Source of the DNA: a virus
Virus record (IMG/VR): IMGVR_UViG_3300049484_000177
Span: 1 to 64,000 of that record
Length of the DNA stretch: 64,000 nucleotides
Direction: 5' to 3' (one strand)
The position numbers and the translations under genes are program-made. The notes beneath the pieces were generated by a model. The model worked only from the letters and a program-made list of their open reading frames with translations, made no database searches and was not told the origin of the DNA. Shown piece after piece: positions 11,214 through 25,970 of the stretch; position 1 is the first letter of the stretch, and each line of letters opens with the position of its first letter.

Positions 11214-14200
11214 CTAATCGAGAATGGACTTCGGCCTACGACTGCTTATCTTCTTCTCGGAACCGACCCATGAGGATTCTTTACGAGCCTCCTCCAACGA
11301 CTTCTTCTTACCTGGTCGTTCAGCCAGCAACGATCTTTCAATGGACTTAGTAATGCTCGCCTTGGTCTTCTTTTGTTCTGTATCATCCTCTCCTACTCCC
11401 GCAGGAACCCAAGTACATCGACAGTTAGGGTGTCGAGGTAACATACCTCTCGATTCCTTGATACTTACCACTATACCTTCCAATGAAGCACATAACTCGC
11501 AGGGACTTGGATTGCCTTTAGCTGTCAGTCCAAGTTTACTAGTCACCCACTCCACTTGCACCCCAAGTTCAGTCACCCCCATGTTCTCATAACCATCCAA
11601 AGCCCCCTCATTGAAGGCTCGTATAACTTCTGTGTTAGCAATCCTCTCCGACCTTACCCTACCAAGACCAGATACGTCCTTATTCAAATCACGAGCTATC
11701 TCTCTCGGACTCTTACCAGTCACAAATCCATCCACTAACGTCCGCTGCATCTTAGTAGCCATAACATCAGTGACACCCTGCAATTCATTGAGGGCTCTCG
11801 ATGCTAATAGCTTCACCCGTTCCTGGGATACTGGTCTACTAAATGACGAGCGTAGAAACTCCTGCTTTGATCCCTTATAGAAATCGCCCTCTGGTTTCGT
11901 CCAAGGACTGAGCTTCTTGATATAGTCGAAAGCCTTCTCCATACCCTTACCATAAGTATCACGGATGTAGTAGTCCATCCAGTGATCATCAGTTAGGGCA
12001 GTCGTTCCGGCCGACTTCTGTACTAAACGACGATTGATCTGTGTCTTGAGCCAGTTAGTAAATTCATTAAGCTGCTGGTCACGGGTGAGGAATCGCCAGA
12101 TGGTATTGGTAGTTAGTTCATTAGACACTCTACGGCTTCCGATTCGACCTTCTCCTATAACAACCTCATACTCTGACTTACCTCTTTCACCAAGGACTAA
12201 ATCCAAATCCAAAGCAGGCTCATCAACTCGAATCTTCCTACTGTATAATACCTCCCCAAATCCTTCTGCTGTCTGCCTATCCTTTGACCATGATCTAGCT
12301 CCAGCCGCTGCACTAGTTCCTCCACTCTTGATTGATCCTCTATAAACGGTTATCGGTCCAGGATGATACTCAGATAACACTCCACCACTCAACGTATGCT
12401 GAAGCAATAACTTCATTTGCAATCTTAACTTCGCGGATATATGATCATTACCAGACCAATCTGCAACAATCCTCCTCACTAACTGCTTGGCTACTACCGG
12501 ATCATTCAAAATAGTAGGGTCATCATCTATCATACGACCAGTCACTTTCTTCGGGTCCATTTCACTACTTCCACCCTTACCACAACTAGGATCTTTACCC
12601 CCACCTTCGCCGGTTGGACAAAACACATTGAACGTAGCTAAGTCAGTCTTCTCTCTATCACTGCTAGAGTAAGTAATCGACTTGAATTGTAGCTCCACCC
12701 CTTCCAATCCACTCAACCCAACATACTTATAACCAGTCCCAGGCTTCAGGTAGGCCAATGTCAAGTGAGGATGGTAGTCCGGATGAGTTGTAGTATTCGG
12801 TATGATGCCTAGATGAGCATTAACACTCTCTAGGTCTCGGCTATCTACATCTACCTTGAGAACATCAGCATCTGAATTCCTGAACAGAGACACCGAACGT
12901 AGCTCAGCTCTGATTGGCCCATGCTGAGAGATAAGTAGTTGAACCCTATCTGGATCAAGGTCGTGTAGACCATATCTAACTGTCACATGATACTCGTCTT
13001 CCATCTTGTCCACATCAGCGGGGTTTAGTTTAGCCTGCAACTGCTTCAGCTTACTCAAGACATCGGTATCAGTTATATCTACTTGGGTTGAGGCGAAGTT
13101 GAGAGAGAGTTGATTAGTAACTACACTACTACGATCAATCAACCCAACATCCAACCGATTCCAAGTGGCAGTTAATGAAGCCACCTTTACTATATCGCTA
13201 TAAGCAGCGGGGTGAGTTTTGAAAGACCTCCATTCCTTCTTGAACGCGGATGACTTCAATACTCTAATACCAGCAAACTTGGCTCCATATTGTGAACCAG
13301 TTAGATCAATAATAGCATCTTCAGTTTGAACTACTGCGTGCCAAAGATACTTTTGGTTGTTCCTATCACCTCCCAAAAAAGCCTTCCAATCCGGGTGAGC
13401 ATCCTCTGGTAAAGGAGGCTTCAAACCAGTAGCGCCTATCACCCTTGCTTTGATACCTTTATATTGAAGATAAGAAGCCAGCTCACCAGCTACAGTATCA
13501 CACTTACCCTTAGAAACGTCACACTTAGTTAATACATCAGATGGTTCATAACTAATATATGTCTCATCCAGAAACTTACTCAGTATCGGTAGGTATTTCT
13601 TAGTCAACTCCACATCCGATTGAGGATTAACAGGGTACTTACTGCTCCTTCCTCCCCTTCCACATGTCGGATCTTTACCGCCGCCAGGGCCAGTATGGCA
13701 AAATACATTACCAGTAGGCTCTATCGGCTCCCTCATACCAAACACATCAAGCGTTACTAACAGCTCAGTCACATCCTGCTGTAGCAACGAGAACCTACGA
13801 TTGATCTCCTTGATCAACCTATCTCGTTGCAGCTTAGTACGGGTGGGATCTAGTTTGAGAGGGTTTGGTCGTCCGTTAGTCTTGCGGGCGTGGGTGATGA
13901 TAGAATCTTTGGGATCGAATGTCCCTCGGTTGCCTATGGCTGATTTGATCTGTGTTGGTTCAAAAACAACAAACACTCTACTGCCAGGAGTTTGTATCTC
14001 TGGCCAATTATCAACAATCAATCCATCGTGACCTTCGTATTTCGCCCGGTCAAGAGCCTTCGCTTGTGACTCAGTTCTAGTTTCATAATCAAAATAAGCA
14101 GGATTCTCCATCTTCAGATAAACAGGCATTACTTGAGCATTGCCCGGATGATAACCAGTTGCATAATCTGCAAACTTTGAATCATCAGTAAAATAAATCC

Positions 14201-23642: not shown

Positions 23643-25970
23643 TTAGACCTTGCCGTACAGTTTCTTCTGCTTCATCATTCCTTGATGAACACTATGAGCC
23701 TGCTCGAACAGATCGAGGGCCATATGCTGATGCATCCGCCTATCTGATCCGACCGGGAATGCTTCGGCAGTAGAGAGGTAATGACTTGCAATGCCCTCAA
23801 GTTTGCCAATCTGCCTGTTAGCCATTTGCTGCTTAGGTCCCAGCTTCTTGAAGGCAGGTGATTTGGTGCTGGTATAGATAGGGCCTATGTCCTCATAGGC
23901 TTTCAGGTGAGCATCGAGTACCTGTTGCTTCTTACTATCAGGCAGCTTCTTGTACTCAACCGACTTTCGTTTCACCATCACAGGATCAAATGTTCCGCTT
24001 CTCTTACCTCCACCAACGCCGCAGGTAGGATCTGTGCCACCACCTTTGCCCGTGGGACAGAAGGTGTTCTTAGTAGGCTTCCTCTTTTTCTTCGCTGCCT
24101 CTGCATCCGCCTTTGCCTTCTCATCTAACGCCTTCTGCTCTGCGGGTGTTGGTTTCTTACCTCCCTTAGTAGGTACTACTGGAACAGCGGGCTTCTTACC
24201 AAAGGCAGGAGGAGGTTGTTTTCCATCCACAGGGGGCTTCTGTCCAGGTACAGGCTGCTTACCAGTAACAGGAGGCTGTCCAGGGGCAGCGGGCTGTTCC
24301 TGTCCAGATACTGGTGGTTGTCCGGGTTGAGGAGGCTGTGCCCCAGCAGCAGCTAATGCTTCGGCCTGTACCTTTGCCGCTTCTTCTTGAGCCGCCTCTG
24401 CTTCTGCCTGCTTCTCTTCTTGGGCTTCCATAGCCCTTTGGAGAATACCCTCAGCATCTTCGTCCTCTATATCTAACTCCCTAGTCATAAAGTCCATCGG
24501 GTCCATCAGTACATCAACCCCACCAGCAATGTACTTAGACATAGCATCAACATGCTGTACTGCTATAGCCGCTTTCTCAGCAGGCTTCATAATCTCGGGG
24601 TCTTCCCAATCAATCCTATAACGATCCTTCGGTAGAGGTAGTACACCAAGAGCAATCAACCGATTAACAAAGGGTACGATAACTCTTGGAATCAGGTAAC
24701 TATAACGACGTGCCCTTACCCTATCATTCCAAGTAGAGTCATCCTGTCCACTAGCCAACTCACCCCGCTCGCTGCCTTTGAAGATCCTAAGCGGGATACC
24801 TAGTATGATACAAATGGCCTCAACCTGAACATTGATATGGGAGGTAGGATCAACCACTGAGGGGGCAATAGTCTTAGCAGACATGCCCATTAGGGCTGCC
24901 CATTTCTGCAGCCCATTTTCCATATCGAACATCCGCTCCCGCAGACTATCCTCGTCGAGTTCTACGTCTCCTCCTAACTGCGGGTGAGTCTCAAGGAAGA
25001 TCCTCATGACACAGTTTTTCCAGAACCCTTCAGCATCCCCACCATATATCTTGACGAGGTTGAGTAGGTTGTTCCAAACCGGCCGTTGCCGCGGAACACC
25101 AATCACTTCACTAGAGTCCATGTTATCACAGATATGAACCACCCGCGACCAGTGAACCCTAATACTCCGTTCCTCACGACCAGCGGTGACGTAACTGGTG
25201 CTCTCCGATCCAAGATCAATACTATAAAAGGATGGCTTGCGATAGCGAGGGGAGTGTATGTTAGCGTTATACTCAATACTGGTAACAGAGGTCTCAGCAA
25301 AGACACTTAGATAGAGCAGCTTATGCTCTGACTTCTTCGTCTTACCATTCTCACTACCAGGCTTCTTCGTCTTAGCACTCTCCTCACCTACTACCTTCTT
25401 CTCGTCCTTGGGTTGCTTAGCAAGGTTGTTGATGAACTCCGTATCCTCACTAATGCCTTCATCGTCAAAACCATCCACTGGTTCAGAGAGAGGCTTACCG
25501 TCGTCAATACCAATGAGAATCAGGCCGAAGTGGCCTATGCCGCTCAACTTATCAGCACGGGCCAGATACTCCCATAACGGATTTCCTACCTGTTCCGAAT
25601 CGAAATAGGATTGCTCACCTTCAAGTAGTAGATCACCCAACTTCTTGAATGCTTCCTCGAAGGGAGTAGTGACAGAGGCGTCTTCATCCTCATAGACTTG
25701 AGGGAAGACCTGCCAGCACTCGGAAGGCATAACACTAACTACCCGAGTGCCGATGGGATTACGATTGTACATCTCTGTATAATCAGTAATCGTCATTTCG
25801 TCCGTACTTGGATAGTCACACTCCCTATTGACATCCTTCCTGGCAAACAGAGCCTCCCTCGTCATGTCAGTACGAAGGGCATAGGCATTGGATATTAACT
25901 GCTCAGACAGAGCAGCAGCAAATGGATCATCTTGCACACCAAAGATGGTCCCTTTTCGATTGCTAATCAT
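23643..25970 (-). CDS. Portal protein (DUF1073-like) with Pro-rich linker, motif and C-terminal extra module
   Basis: YNRNPIGTRVV, RVHWSRVVH, GVPRQRPVWNNLLNLVKIYGGDAEGFWKN, IPLRIFKGSERGELAS; downstream of terminase. Confidence 0.85.
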   Translation of the reverse strand: MISNRKGTIFGVQDDPFAAALSEQLISNAYALRTDMTREALFARKDVNRECDYPSTDEMTITDYTEMYNRNPIGTRVVSVMPSECWQVFPQVYEDEDASVTTPFEEAFKKLGDLLLEGEQSYFDSEQVGNPLWEYLARADKLSGIGHFGLILIGIDDGKPLSEPVDGFDDEGISEDTEFINNLAKQPKDEKKVVGEESAKTKKPGSENGKTKKSEHKLLYLSVFAETSVTSIEYNANIHSPRYRKPSFYSIDLGSESTSYVTAGREERSIRVHWSRVVHICDNMDSSEVIGVPRQRPVWNNLLNLVKIYGGDAEGFWKNCVMRIFLETHPQLGGDVELDEDSLRERMFDMENGLQKWAALMGMSAKTIAPSVVDPTSHINVQVEAICIILGIPLRIFKGSERGELASGQDDSTWNDRVRARRYSYLIPRVIVPFVNRLIALGVLPLPKDRYRIDWEDPEIMKPAEKAAIAVQHVDAMSKYIAGGVDVLMDPMDFMTRELDIEDEDAEGILQRAMEAQEEKQAEAEAAQEEAAKVQAEALAAAGAQPPQPGQPPVSGQEQPAAPGQPPVTGKQPVPGQKPPVDGKQPPPAFGKKPAVPVVPTKGGKKPTPAEQKALDEKAKADAEAAKKKRKPTKNTFCPTGKGGGTDPTCGVGGGKRSGTFDPVMVKRKSVEYKKLPDSKKQQVLDAHLKAYEDIGPIYTSTKSPAFKKLGPKQQMANRQIGKLEGIASHYLSTAEAFPVGSDRRMHQHMALDLFEQAHSVHQGMMKQKKLYGKV

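Follow-up and report, generated by a model that had tools for sequence, protein, structure and literature searches.

Several systems are known in which phages carry additional proteins in their heads. The internal proteins of T4 are packed into the prohead as cargo, and an assemblin-fold protease then trims them at a site with a hydrophobic P3 and a specific P1 residue, and the T4 capsid-targeting peptide precedes the gp21 cut and is discarded. The sites of gp21 read L/I-x-E and those of the assemblins V/L-x-A. Entry without cutting is also known for very large virion proteins, the RNA polymerase of phage N4 being one. For polyvalent proteins, which occur in phages and conjugative elements, Iyer et al. 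2017 (PMC5512222) propose that zincin-like metallopeptidase domains do most of the processing, and they also discuss uncut injection of the N4 RNA polymerase type; in their text 'junction' is used only for Holliday junctions, and cysteine (or Cys), glycine, spacer, linker and interdomain are absent. MuF polymorphic toxins, known from temperate phages, pair an N-terminal MuF domain with a single toxin at the C-terminus, are accompanied by an immunity gene and occur in prophages (Jamet et al. 2017, PMC5576092), in a text in which motif, linker, cleavage, cysteine and glycine do not occur. In the HK97-like phage phi12, Arg or Lys was measured at P1 of the capsid and Ccm proteins (PMC8569155).

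The stretch analyzed here (the window, 64,000 nucleotides) belongs to the 98,383-bp record, with terminal repeats, of an uncultured freshwater-sediment phage. As in polyvalent proteins, unrelated effectors are joined in one polypeptide, often with a MuF or portal domain, and are presumably packaged and then delivered together with the DNA; shared domains include ART-PolyVal, 2H phosphoesterase, topoisomerase, GNAT, NUDIX and ParB-like. Two of the proteins combine at least two unrelated effector domains, as polyvalent proteins do (A has ART-PolyVal, Acb1/2H and MuF; C has a type IB topoisomerase and another module). Unlike in polyvalent proteins, every module here is bounded by a conserved junction whose edge is specific to the head protease. 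The MuF (SPP1 gp7) proteins carry toxin domains such as ADP-ribosyltransferases, as MuF toxins do, but MuF is usually internal or last, with modules inserted between its N-terminal helix and its core, rather than N-terminal with a single toxin. Nor is there a sign of temperate residence in prophages: the window is part of a 98-kb virus record, and prokaryote genomes (596 Gb, 185,579 species genomes) contain one true copy of the motif. Contrary to the T4 tag, the conserved part follows the putative cut and would stay on the cargo, and it is repeated inside polyproteins and common to phages with unrelated head proteins.

Results

A junction repeated in five head genes

Six-frame and DNA-pattern scans gave 14 exact matches to N-x-F-C-x-x-G-x-G-G-G-x-D-P-x-C, each within one of five minus-strand head genes (five in A, one in B, two in C, five in D and one in the portal gene E; Table 1). 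No match occurred in 100 dinucleotide shuffles or elsewhere in the complete virus record, which confirms the number and the confinement given in the initial annotation. Each copy is followed by a Gly/Ser/Lys-rich linker, as that annotation had it, and then by a module, here measured at 122-455 aa. The invariant residues are encoded by several synonymous codons (for example, all four Gly codons), and the claim that selection acts on the peptide therefore holds.

Table 1. Features of the head region, in window coordinates.
Feature	Position	Strand	Evidence
Major capsid protein, DUF6260 type	7661..8884	-	Pfam DUF6260 aa 97-404
Candidate capsid maturation site I-R-N|A, aa 93-96	8597-8608	-	V-x-N-A in homologs
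Head maturation protease, DUF2213 family aa 1-205, with acidic/basic scaffold-like tail	9515..10837	-	Homologs, AlphaFold2
Gene A (MuF protein), 1482-aa frame	11214..15662	-	Pfam domains; phrog_758
Junction A5, aa 1012, ahead of MuF core module	12582..12629	-	Motif scans
Junction A4, aa 652, immediately past MuF N-terminal helix element	13662..13709	-	Motif scans
MuF N-terminal helix element, A aa 601-646	13725..13862	-	HMM from 38 leaders, E 1e-13
Junction A3, aa 418	14364..14411	-	Motif scans
Junction A2, aa 245	14883..14930	-	Motif scans
Junction A1, aa 71	15405..15452	-	Motif scans
Gene B, 496 aa	16608..18098	-	71-aa acidic leader, one junction, 409-aa module
Junction B1, aa 72	17838..17885	-	Motif scans
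Gene C, 553 aa	18100..19761	-	Pfam Topoisom_I aa 336-521, E 6.5e-13
Junction C2, aa 198	19123..19170	-	Motif scans
Junction C1, aa 29	19630..19677	-	Motif scans
Gene D, 1294-aa frame	19758..23642	-	Acidic leader and five modules
Junction D5, aa 1110	20268..20315	-	Motif scans
Junction D4, aa 937	20787..20834	-	Motif scans
Junction D3, aa 474	22176..22223	-	Motif scans
Junction D2, aa 336	22590..22637	-	Motif scans
Junction D1, aa 90	23328..23375	-	Motif scans
Portal gene E, 775 aa	23643..25970	-	Pfam Phage_portal_3 aa 211-478; phrog_146 E 2.8e-55
Junction in portal E (T-K-N|T-F-C...C), aa 635	24021..24068	-	Motif scans

In portal E, the portal domain is followed by the junction and a 125-aa C-terminal module. 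The modules of D had no match in Pfam and PHROG searches. Its start is most likely an ATG near 23624 with an upstream RBS, giving 1288 aa; read-through from the portal gene was rejected, as that gene terminates in TAA. Gene C, whose start overlaps the end of D (ATGA), encodes a short acidic leader, a 153-aa module and the type IB topoisomerase module, and the large module of B had no family match in Pfam or PHROGs. Gene A (database product of 1443 aa from a later ATG, P0009) encodes a basic leader, two modules, an ART-PolyVal module (Pfam aa 459-582, E 7e-30), an Acb1/2H phosphoesterase module (Acb1 aa 868-972) and the MuF core. A reading in which the MuF core is the first module was rejected, because Phage_Mu_F lies at aa 1304-1418 of 1482 and is thus the last. 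One module and two junctions separate this core from the MuF N-terminal helix element (consensus D-P-T-R-T...R-R-F...E-D-A-F-G-L). The strings H-E-x-x-H occur at A163 and B348, where Pfam and PHROGs gave no peptidase family.

The core has one cysteine at each end (C-x11-C). A zinc knuckle or ribbon within one chain was rejected, as it would have C-x-x-C pairs with two Cys per knuckle and four per metal site, and a viral 2A peptide was rejected because the motif logo is without D-x-E-x-N-P-G-P. An AlphaFold2 model of a 40-aa junction segment (pLDDT 64.6) has neither secondary structure nor a fold of its own, and the Pfam scan of the window proteins gave no intein-type Hint domain. A separate Hint domain is present in one distant motif protein. 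The junction motif had no match in Pfam, in NCBIfam, among PDB sequences or in the literature that could be searched, and it appears to be undescribed so far.

The residue at -2 varies with the head protease

Where a locus or record has a DUF2213-type protease (33 contigs by our own tally, the window included), the residue two before the Phe of the core (-2) is always Asn (100 of 100 unique junctions). This position has an entropy of 0 bits, compared with 3.8-3.95 bits for -3 and for -5 to -8; an invariant position beside near-random neighbours points to selection rather than drift. In 18 contigs with a Peptidase_S78 protease, all 11 unique junctions have Arg (7) or Lys (4) at -2, in a set rich in close relatives that represents about 8 distinct junction lineages. 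Leu is found at this position in G001/G012 and Tyr or Phe in L015/L017/L097/L114; a search for the head protease of these two classes gave no identification. The core F-C-P-T-G-x-G-G-G-x-D-P-x-C is identical across all classes.

As a prospective check, 13 further contigs were chosen by junction type before looking at the protease. S78 turned up in 2 of the 5 K/R-type contigs and DUF2213 in 4 of the 7 N-type contigs, and neither occurred outside its own class (0 cross cases). Because the protease is co-inherited with the capsid and portal type, the -2 switch may nevertheless stem from descent or from a different lineage-specific protein of the head. DUF6260 capsid proteins, for instance, are present in 12 of 13 DUF2213 records.

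Because -2 follows the protease family while the core stays the same, the left edge of the junction is most likely a protease cut site. The earlier suggestion that the modules are cut apart is therefore supported indirectly, with cleavage itself a step that we infer, whereas the idea that the 16-mer is a single tag was not borne out: its first residues are protease-specific and only F-C...C is universal.

The head protease has a predicted gp21/assemblin fold

ORF 9515-10837 has 1676 homologs, some with PF09979. Across 58 sequences H73, D172-H173 and C184/C190 are invariant and S138 nearly so; the His/Ser/His set (H73, S138, H173) is, by analogy with assemblin-fold proteases, probably catalytic. 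The AlphaFold2 model (pLDDT 89) matches T4 gp21 best (5jbl; Z 11.2, rmsd 3.5, 139 aa), followed by the herpesvirus assemblins (Z 6-8), and the top 11 Foldseek matches are assemblin/gp21-type head proteases only. The predicted structure thus shows the T4 gp21/assemblin fold in a DUF2213-type protease. Pfam gave no hit at E <= 0.1 and hence no match to Peptidase_S78 (PF04586). The S78 motif phages, with Arg/Lys before the core, resemble phi12 at P1 (PMC8569155), whereas the protease of the window is not S78 and is paired with Asn.

The pattern at the junction edge recurs at places where cutting by the head protease would be expected. It is kept as V-x-N-A at the border between the variable N-terminal part and the body of 11 homologous capsid proteins. 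The protease, which carries no junction core itself, has five [TVIL]-x-N-[AV] sites in its scaffold tail. Across the tails of 114 homologs, [TVIL]-x-N-[AVG] occurs 304 times, compared with 108 times in shuffles, but the conserved protease domain is equally enriched (303 against 84.5), so the counts are inflated by sites inherited among homologs, perhaps in the tails too. The junction edge has the same layout as the gp21 and assemblin sites, with a hydrophobic P3 and a specific P1. Because the capsid and scaffold sites are without the core, the core would not be needed for cutting.

A cultured relative of the head module, Halorubrum virus Hardycor1 (MT152698), shares the order of portal, MuF with N-terminal helix element, DUF2213-type protease (annotated as hypothetical) and capsid protein. 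It differs in having neither junction core nor cargo array, with plain Asn-containing sequences after the MuF N-terminal helix.

The junction is widespread in metagenomic phages

With a cutoff of E <= 0.001, a profile search retrieved 1425 protein clusters, almost all of them from metagenomes, and a single protein can contain as many as 10 copies; a cultured phage bearing the motif was looked for and none was found. Placement is always interdomain, between the domains of portal, MuF or head-protease proteins and enzyme modules of various kinds, and copies inside portal, MuF or protease domains numbered 0 of 452. Junctions sit past the portal domain in portals of three Pfam families and, in S78 proteases, between the protease and its coiled-coil scaffold. 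In 21 long records every copy lies on one strand, in a single head block of at most about 12 kb. Confinement to head-module genes with variable downstream domains was the pattern named in advance as support for a portable element, and the profile search bears it out.

Among 188 motif proteins, 112 have the MuF N-terminal helix element, 100 of these with 1-5 junctions before the MuF core, and 97 of 136 MuF-core domain hits have junctions on both sides. A module always lies downstream of the core (median 297 aa after the last core), which supports the view that the core belongs with the module behind it. Cores also occur at 5-9 aa from the N-terminus, still preceded by the class-specific residue.

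Discussion

We propose that the copies are probably two-part junctions, each consisting of a site at which the head protease of the same phage would cut and a two-cysteine loop, in polyproteins packaged in the capsid. The first part, from -4 to -1 before the Phe (here [T/V]-x-N-[A/V]), would be the site cut by the protease of ORF 9515-10837, with the position of the scissile bond assumed by analogy. The second part, F-C-P-T-G-x-G-G-G-x-D-P-x-C and the Gly/Ser linker, would be an invariant loop independent of the protease. The initial interpretation is in this sense partly supported.

The whole 16-mer could instead be purely a packaging tag that docks cargo to the capsid interior, the portal or the scaffold, with any cutting occurring elsewhere. 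The T4 capsid-targeting sequence is a precedent, and the flexible Gly/Ser tether that carries the core is a common arrangement for docking peptides. Proteins B, C and D are without a recognisable carrier domain and yet have a copy within 29-90 aa of their start, and 37 of the 48 carrier-less motif proteins have one in the first 100 aa. We nevertheless consider this unlikely. No portal, capsid, MuF or protease family common to all motif phages was found: they span three portal families and at least two protease families, MuF is missing from two complete motif-phage records, and the DUF6260 capsid protein is confined to one junction class. Because a conserved partner is not shared, the specific binding to a capsid or portal surface that was suggested at the outset is not supported. 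Furthermore, a tag would be superfluous on fusions to a portal or protease already in the head, and it would not explain a -2 residue that switches with the head lineage beside a constant core.

The junction might also be an uncut hinge, that is, a spacer, metal-binding or simply flexible, that would allow adjacent modules to fold and unfold separately while passing through the tail, with polyproteins injected whole and -2 differing by descent. The N4 RNA polymerase shows that very large virion proteins can be injected in this way, the absence of a fold in the modelled 40-aa segment is compatible with a spacer, and the two invariant Cys with C-P-T-G-x-G-G-G resemble half of a DnaJ-type zinc knuckle (C-x-x-C-x-G-x-G). 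This explanation is distinctly improbable, as it must account for zero entropy at -2 in 100 diverse junctions with near-random neighbours, and for the recurrence of [T/V]-x-N in the scaffold tail and at the border within the capsid protein. A portal-fused cargo must be cut off to exit the virion, and cores at 5-9 aa from the N-terminus leave nothing to hinge. Self-acting separation (by an Asp-Pro bond, Asn cyclisation, a Phe-Cys N-to-S acyl shift or 2A-like ribosome skipping) would need no phage partner, fitting the ribosome as a universal reader or plain chemistry, and a conserved 18-aa peptide at the joints of a polyprotein has a formal likeness to 2A, but it is very improbable: the Asp-Pro position is variable in the logo (Pro 75%, Asn 18%, Ala 5%), Asn at -2 is not catalytic because whole lineages have Arg/Lys, Leu or Tyr there, no Hint or other fold was predicted around the junction, and an autonomous break would make a protease-linked residue needless.

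The two-part junction does not explain through its cut site why the 14 residues that follow are invariant. After cutting, the loop would form the N-terminus of the downstream cargo module, and one may guess that it is a handle, closed by a metal or a disulfide, by which cargo is held, organised or primed in the head. Portal E and proteins D, C, B and A would enter the procapsid via their carrier parts and leaders, and the protease would then cut the five products into about 19 pieces, 14 of them starting with the loop. These pieces, which would include an ADP-ribosyltransferase, an Acb1-like 2H phosphoesterase and a type IB topoisomerase, would presumably be delivered with the DNA.

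Fourteen junctions in five head genes

Scanning all six frames and matching a degenerate DNA pattern each returned exactly 14 copies of N-x-F-C-x-x-G-x-G-G-G-x-D-P-x-C in the window, all on the minus strand, confirming the count that the initial annotation had given for five head-region genes (A, the MuF protein; B; C; D; and E, the portal). Shuffled sequence contained no copy, and the whole 98,383-bp IMG/VR virus record, which has terminal repeats, holds none beyond these 14. Among sequencing runs, one DNA set contains the sequence, a freshwater sediment metagenome that may be its source, and no RNA set is listed. 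Synonymous codons vary freely between copies. Downstream of each junction come a Gly/Ser/Lys linker and a module of 122-455 aa.

On the minus strand, the small terminase gene is followed by the large terminase, the portal, D, C and B. A pair of small ORFs separates B from A, after which lie an 88-aa ORF resembling a winged-helix protein, the gene of a 440-aa protein, a 164-aa ORF and the major capsid protein. Pfam matched domains in A, C and E, and none in D or B. Stop-codon read-through from the portal into D was ruled out: the portal gene ends in TAA, followed by a ribosome-binding site and the ATG of D.

Features of the window and their coordinates (nucleotides, or residues where marked aa)
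Feature	Position	Strand	Junction copies	Remarks
Major capsid protein	7661-8884	minus		DUF6260 type
Putative head maturation protease	9515-10837	minus		DUF2213 type
88-aa ORF	10942-11208	minus		between MuF and protease genes; weak winged-helix match (Trans_reg_C, E 3e-5)
A, MuF protein	11214-15662	minus	5	
ART-PolyVal in A	aa 459-582			Pfam
Acb1/2H phosphoesterase in A	aa 868-972			Pfam
MuF core in A	aa 1304-1418			Pfam; last module
95-aa hydrophobic ORF	15919-16206	minus		between B and A; C-C-P-W-C string; weak phrog_781 match
B	16608-18098	minus	1	
C	18100-19761	minus	2	type IB topoisomerase (Pfam)
D	19758-23642	minus	5	
E, portal	23643-25970	minus	1	portal domain (Pfam), junction downstream of it at aa 635
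133-aa zinc-ribbon protein	27283-27684	minus		between terminase and portal; many weak Zn-ribbon Pfam matches
Large terminase, apparently split	28072-30146	minus		
C-part ORF	28072-29013	minus		phrog_2 nuclease region
HNH endonuclease ORF	29017-29508	minus		between the terminase parts
N-part ORF	29511-30146	minus		
tRNA-Ile	47452-47544			anticodon TAT; plus-strand replication arm
tRNA-Met	54823-54898			plus-strand replication arm
W-[WY]-x-[LF]-[VIL] in C and D	aa 189 (C), aa 930 (D)			just before junctions
W-[WY]-x-[LF]-[VIL] in B	aa 477			C-terminal end
W-[WY]-x-[LF]-[VIL] in protease	aa 200			right after protease domain

Some further features of the window were recorded. The HNH endonuclease ORF shares its reading frame with the C-part of the terminase, one stop apart, and the split could reflect an intron or a homing-endonuclease insertion. 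The tRNA-Ile is 93 nt long and thus possibly carries an insertion. Another short element, W-[WY]-x-[LF]-[VIL], is present at four places, those in B, C and D falling within 16646-20855. The leaders of B, C and D (the first 28-89 aa) are strongly acidic, with a net charge of -31 in D. The leader of A is strongly basic (+13), a character shared by the MuF N-helix leaders of many other motif proteins, and Lys and Arg abound in the portal segment that precedes its junction; electrostatic pairing of acidic and basic leaders during assembly is possible.

Distribution of the junction

The DNA pattern matched 99 stretches of IMG/VR contigs, with 144 copies in 108 open frames. An alignment of long ORFs used a subset of 34 out of 67. 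A profile built from 131 forty-residue junction contexts recovered 1,425 representative proteins among 1.84 billion at E <= 0.001 (105 at E <= 1e-30), with a maximum of 10 copies per protein. In a second database, most matches carried MuF and nearly all were metagenomic; their other domains were portals, ADP-ribosyltransferases, ParB-like nucleases, topoisomerase IB, GNAT, NUDIX, sigma-70 regions and HNH. The copies in each of 21 long records share one strand and a single head block of at most about 12 kb, and those records that are at least 90% complete each hold at least two copies. Among 596 Gb of species-representative prokaryote genomes there were seven pattern matches, six of which were chance occurrences in GC-rich or short frames. 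The single real copy is on a MAG contig. Given this near-absence, the motif is one of non-integrated, uncultured phages.

No NCBIfam or Pfam model covers the motif, and the junction profile matched no PDB sequence at E <= 10. String searches of the literature for motif segments gave unrelated matches only, and topic searches turned up no publication describing a junction of this kind. One 40-aa junction used as a tblastn query had no match among 50,697 cultured phage records, a negative of little weight, as the low-complexity filter probably masks the query. When the MuF N-terminal helix was searched together with the junction, the sole tblastn match was Halorubrum virus Hardycor1, without the core. 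The junction core is an undescribed element.

The residue at -2 follows the head protease family

Conservation was computed over 626 unique junction instances. Both Cys and Gly8 are present in 100%, Thr3 and the remaining Gly in 98-99%, Asp10 in 96% and Phe in 95%, the remainder being nearly all Tyr or Trp. Pro11 is conserved in only 75%, and the idea of an acid-labile Asp-Pro bond was rejected on this ground. The residue two before the core Phe (-2) is Asn in 87% and otherwise mostly Lys, Arg or Leu. We sorted the junctions by the head protease on the same contig, with contig counts tallied from the locus table and protease matches, and this sorting accounts for the variation at -2.

Residue at -2 according to the head protease on the same contig
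Protease	Contigs	Unique junctions	Residue at -2
DUF2213 type (homolog of ORF 9515-10837)	33	100	Asn in all
Peptidase_S78	18	11	Arg 7, Lys 4, never Asn
None assigned (G001/G012)	2, near-identical, one lineage		Leu, in L-P-x-G-L-x-L-A-F-C
None assigned (L015/L017/L097/L114)	4		Tyr or Phe

At -2, the DUF2213 class has an entropy of 0 bits, against nearly random values (3.8-3.95 bits) at -3 and at -5 to -8; 76 of its 100 junctions have Val or Thr at -4. A follow-up set of 13 fragmentary contigs was chosen by junction type before the proteases were examined; S78 turned up in 2 of 5 K/R-type contigs and a DUF2213 homolog in 4 of 7 N-type contigs, and neither occurred in contigs of another type. PHROGs gave no protease for the Leu-type (G001) or Tyr/Phe-type (L017) phages, and the head genes of G001 contain no G-L-x-L sites besides the junctions. 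The Leu-type phages (loci L130/L131 and L142) differ in gene order, with the polyprotein gene placed upstream of those for the terminase and portal, and their loci gave no match to a known head protease family.

A putative head protease and its candidate sites

The 440-aa protein encoded at 9515-10837 has 1,676 homologs, some of them labeled DUF2213. His73, Asp172-His173 and a Cys184/Cys190 pair are invariant, and Ser138 nearly so. Its AlphaFold2 model (pLDDT 89) best matches the T4 gp21 head protease (Z 11.2 over 139 residues, rmsd 3.5), followed by herpesvirus assemblins (Z 6-8). Given this modeled fold and the conserved His-Ser-His, the N-terminal domain of DUF2213 (PF09979) is probably a head maturation protease. 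About 210 cultured phage records match DUF2213; among 40 listed, most are annotated as "hypothetical" and two as "coat protein", and most are from Salmonella phages, with others from Escherichia and Cronobacter phages and Hardycor1 (HrrHc1_055).

Candidate sites with Asn also occur outside the cargo genes. The capsid protein of the window has I-R-N-A exactly at the start of the DUF6260 body, where V-x-N-A is kept in eleven capsid homologs, and the scaffold tail of the protease has five [TVIL]-x-N-[AV] sites. In 114 protease homologs, with Thr or Val at P3 of many Asn residues, the tails hold 304 such sites against 108 in shuffles (2.8x). This enrichment is a weak sign of an Asn-specific protease, because sites inherited by homologs inflate the counts and the conserved protease domain of the same homologs shows a like excess (303 against 84.5). 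For the S78 class, Arg or Lys at -2 fits the HK97-like phage phi12, in which mass spectrometry found Arg or Lys at P1 (PMC8569155).

The left edge of the motif (-4 to -1 before Phe) is most simply read as the P3-P1-P1' site of the head protease, and we infer cleavage there. The invariant F-C...C core is a separate element that would become the N-terminus of each released module, so that the five genes of the window would yield about 19 products, 14 of them beginning with the core. As the chief caveat, protease type is co-inherited with the types of capsid and portal, so -2 could in principle be read by some other head protein specific to the lineage. Cutting at the junctions would explain how portal-fused cargo can leave the virion, and how modules can be accommodated between the N-helix of MuF and its core. 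In one record (G006), modules lie in a like manner between the protease and its scaffold part.

Placement of the junctions and role of the core

Among 188 motif proteins, 137 bear a portal, MuF or protease domain, and 0 of their 452 copies lie inside that domain. In portals of PF06381, PF05136 and PF04860 the junction is downstream of the portal domain, and in S78 proteases it separates the protease from the coiled-coil scaffold part. An N-terminal MuF helix (D-P-T-R-T...R-R-F...E-D-A-F-G-L) is found in 112 of the 188 proteins, and one to five junctions lie between it and the MuF core in 100 of these. In A the helix is at aa 601-646, immediately upstream of the junction at aa 652, and is parted from the MuF core by junctions, in agreement with a separate remark of the initial annotation that MuF is interrupted. 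The core can be as close as 5-9 residues to the N-terminus and a module always follows, so the core belongs to the downstream module. A median of 297 aa follows the last core, and the three shortest cases look truncated. The class-specific residue at -2 is retained even when the core is only a few residues from the start, a hint, though conjectural, that the freshly exposed N-terminus matters.

The candidate sites in the capsid protein and the scaffold tail have no core, which thus appears not to be required for cutting. AlphaFold2, run on the 40-aa junction alignment alone, predicted no fold of its own (pLDDT 64.6, no secondary structure). All-against-all clustering of head regions revealed no phage protein family common to all carriers near the head block; the most widespread families (19 of 22 records) are cargo or MuF domains. 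Among the 21 long records, a DUF2213 protease occurs in 13, S78 in 4, MuF in 16 and a DUF6260 capsid protein in 12. The C-C-P-W-C membrane ORF, considered as a thiol-oxidoreductase partner, was set aside because it is missing from 21 other motif records. Since no phage family is universal among carriers, we conjecture that the partner is not phage-specific; candidates are the core itself, a metal ion, redox chemistry and a conserved component of the host.

A bolder and rather unlikely reading is that the core is a universal standard for loading head cargo, usable with any protease: the cut-exposed x-F-C-P-T-G...C would bind a metal or pair through its Cys, and the enzymes would be bundled, held in order inside the capsid until the DNA leaves, and exit with it. 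The protease-exposed nickel hook of Ni-superoxide dismutase and the Rad50 zinc hook are parallels in principle. If this were true, a module and its core could move between unrelated phages, because the core would need no phage-specific partner, and only the few preceding residues would adapt to the local protease.

Relation to known systems and implications

The gene content of the window fits the theme of polyvalent proteins and that of MuF or portal effector fusions, and T4 internal proteins cut by gp21 follow a similar logic. Unlike in these systems, the junction here is conserved across unrelated head lineages, combines a protease-specific edge with a universal core that would stay on the cargo, and is nearly absent from prophages. 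Hardycor1, a cultured virus with a related head module, carries the MuF N-helix and a DUF2213 protease without the core, so the core is an add-on to this head lineage.

The loading, processing and ejection of internal proteins have been detailed for very few model phages. With the junction, putative capsid cargo can be recognized by a simple sequence rule in more than a thousand protein clusters of uncultured phages; among the modules so marked are ADP-ribosyltransferases, anti-CBASS-like phosphoesterases, topoisomerases, sigma factors and nucleases. The analysis further predicts cut specificity for two head-protease families (Asn for DUF2213, Arg/Lys for S78), assigns a putative function to DUF2213, and isolates a 14-residue invariant peptide whose role is directly testable.
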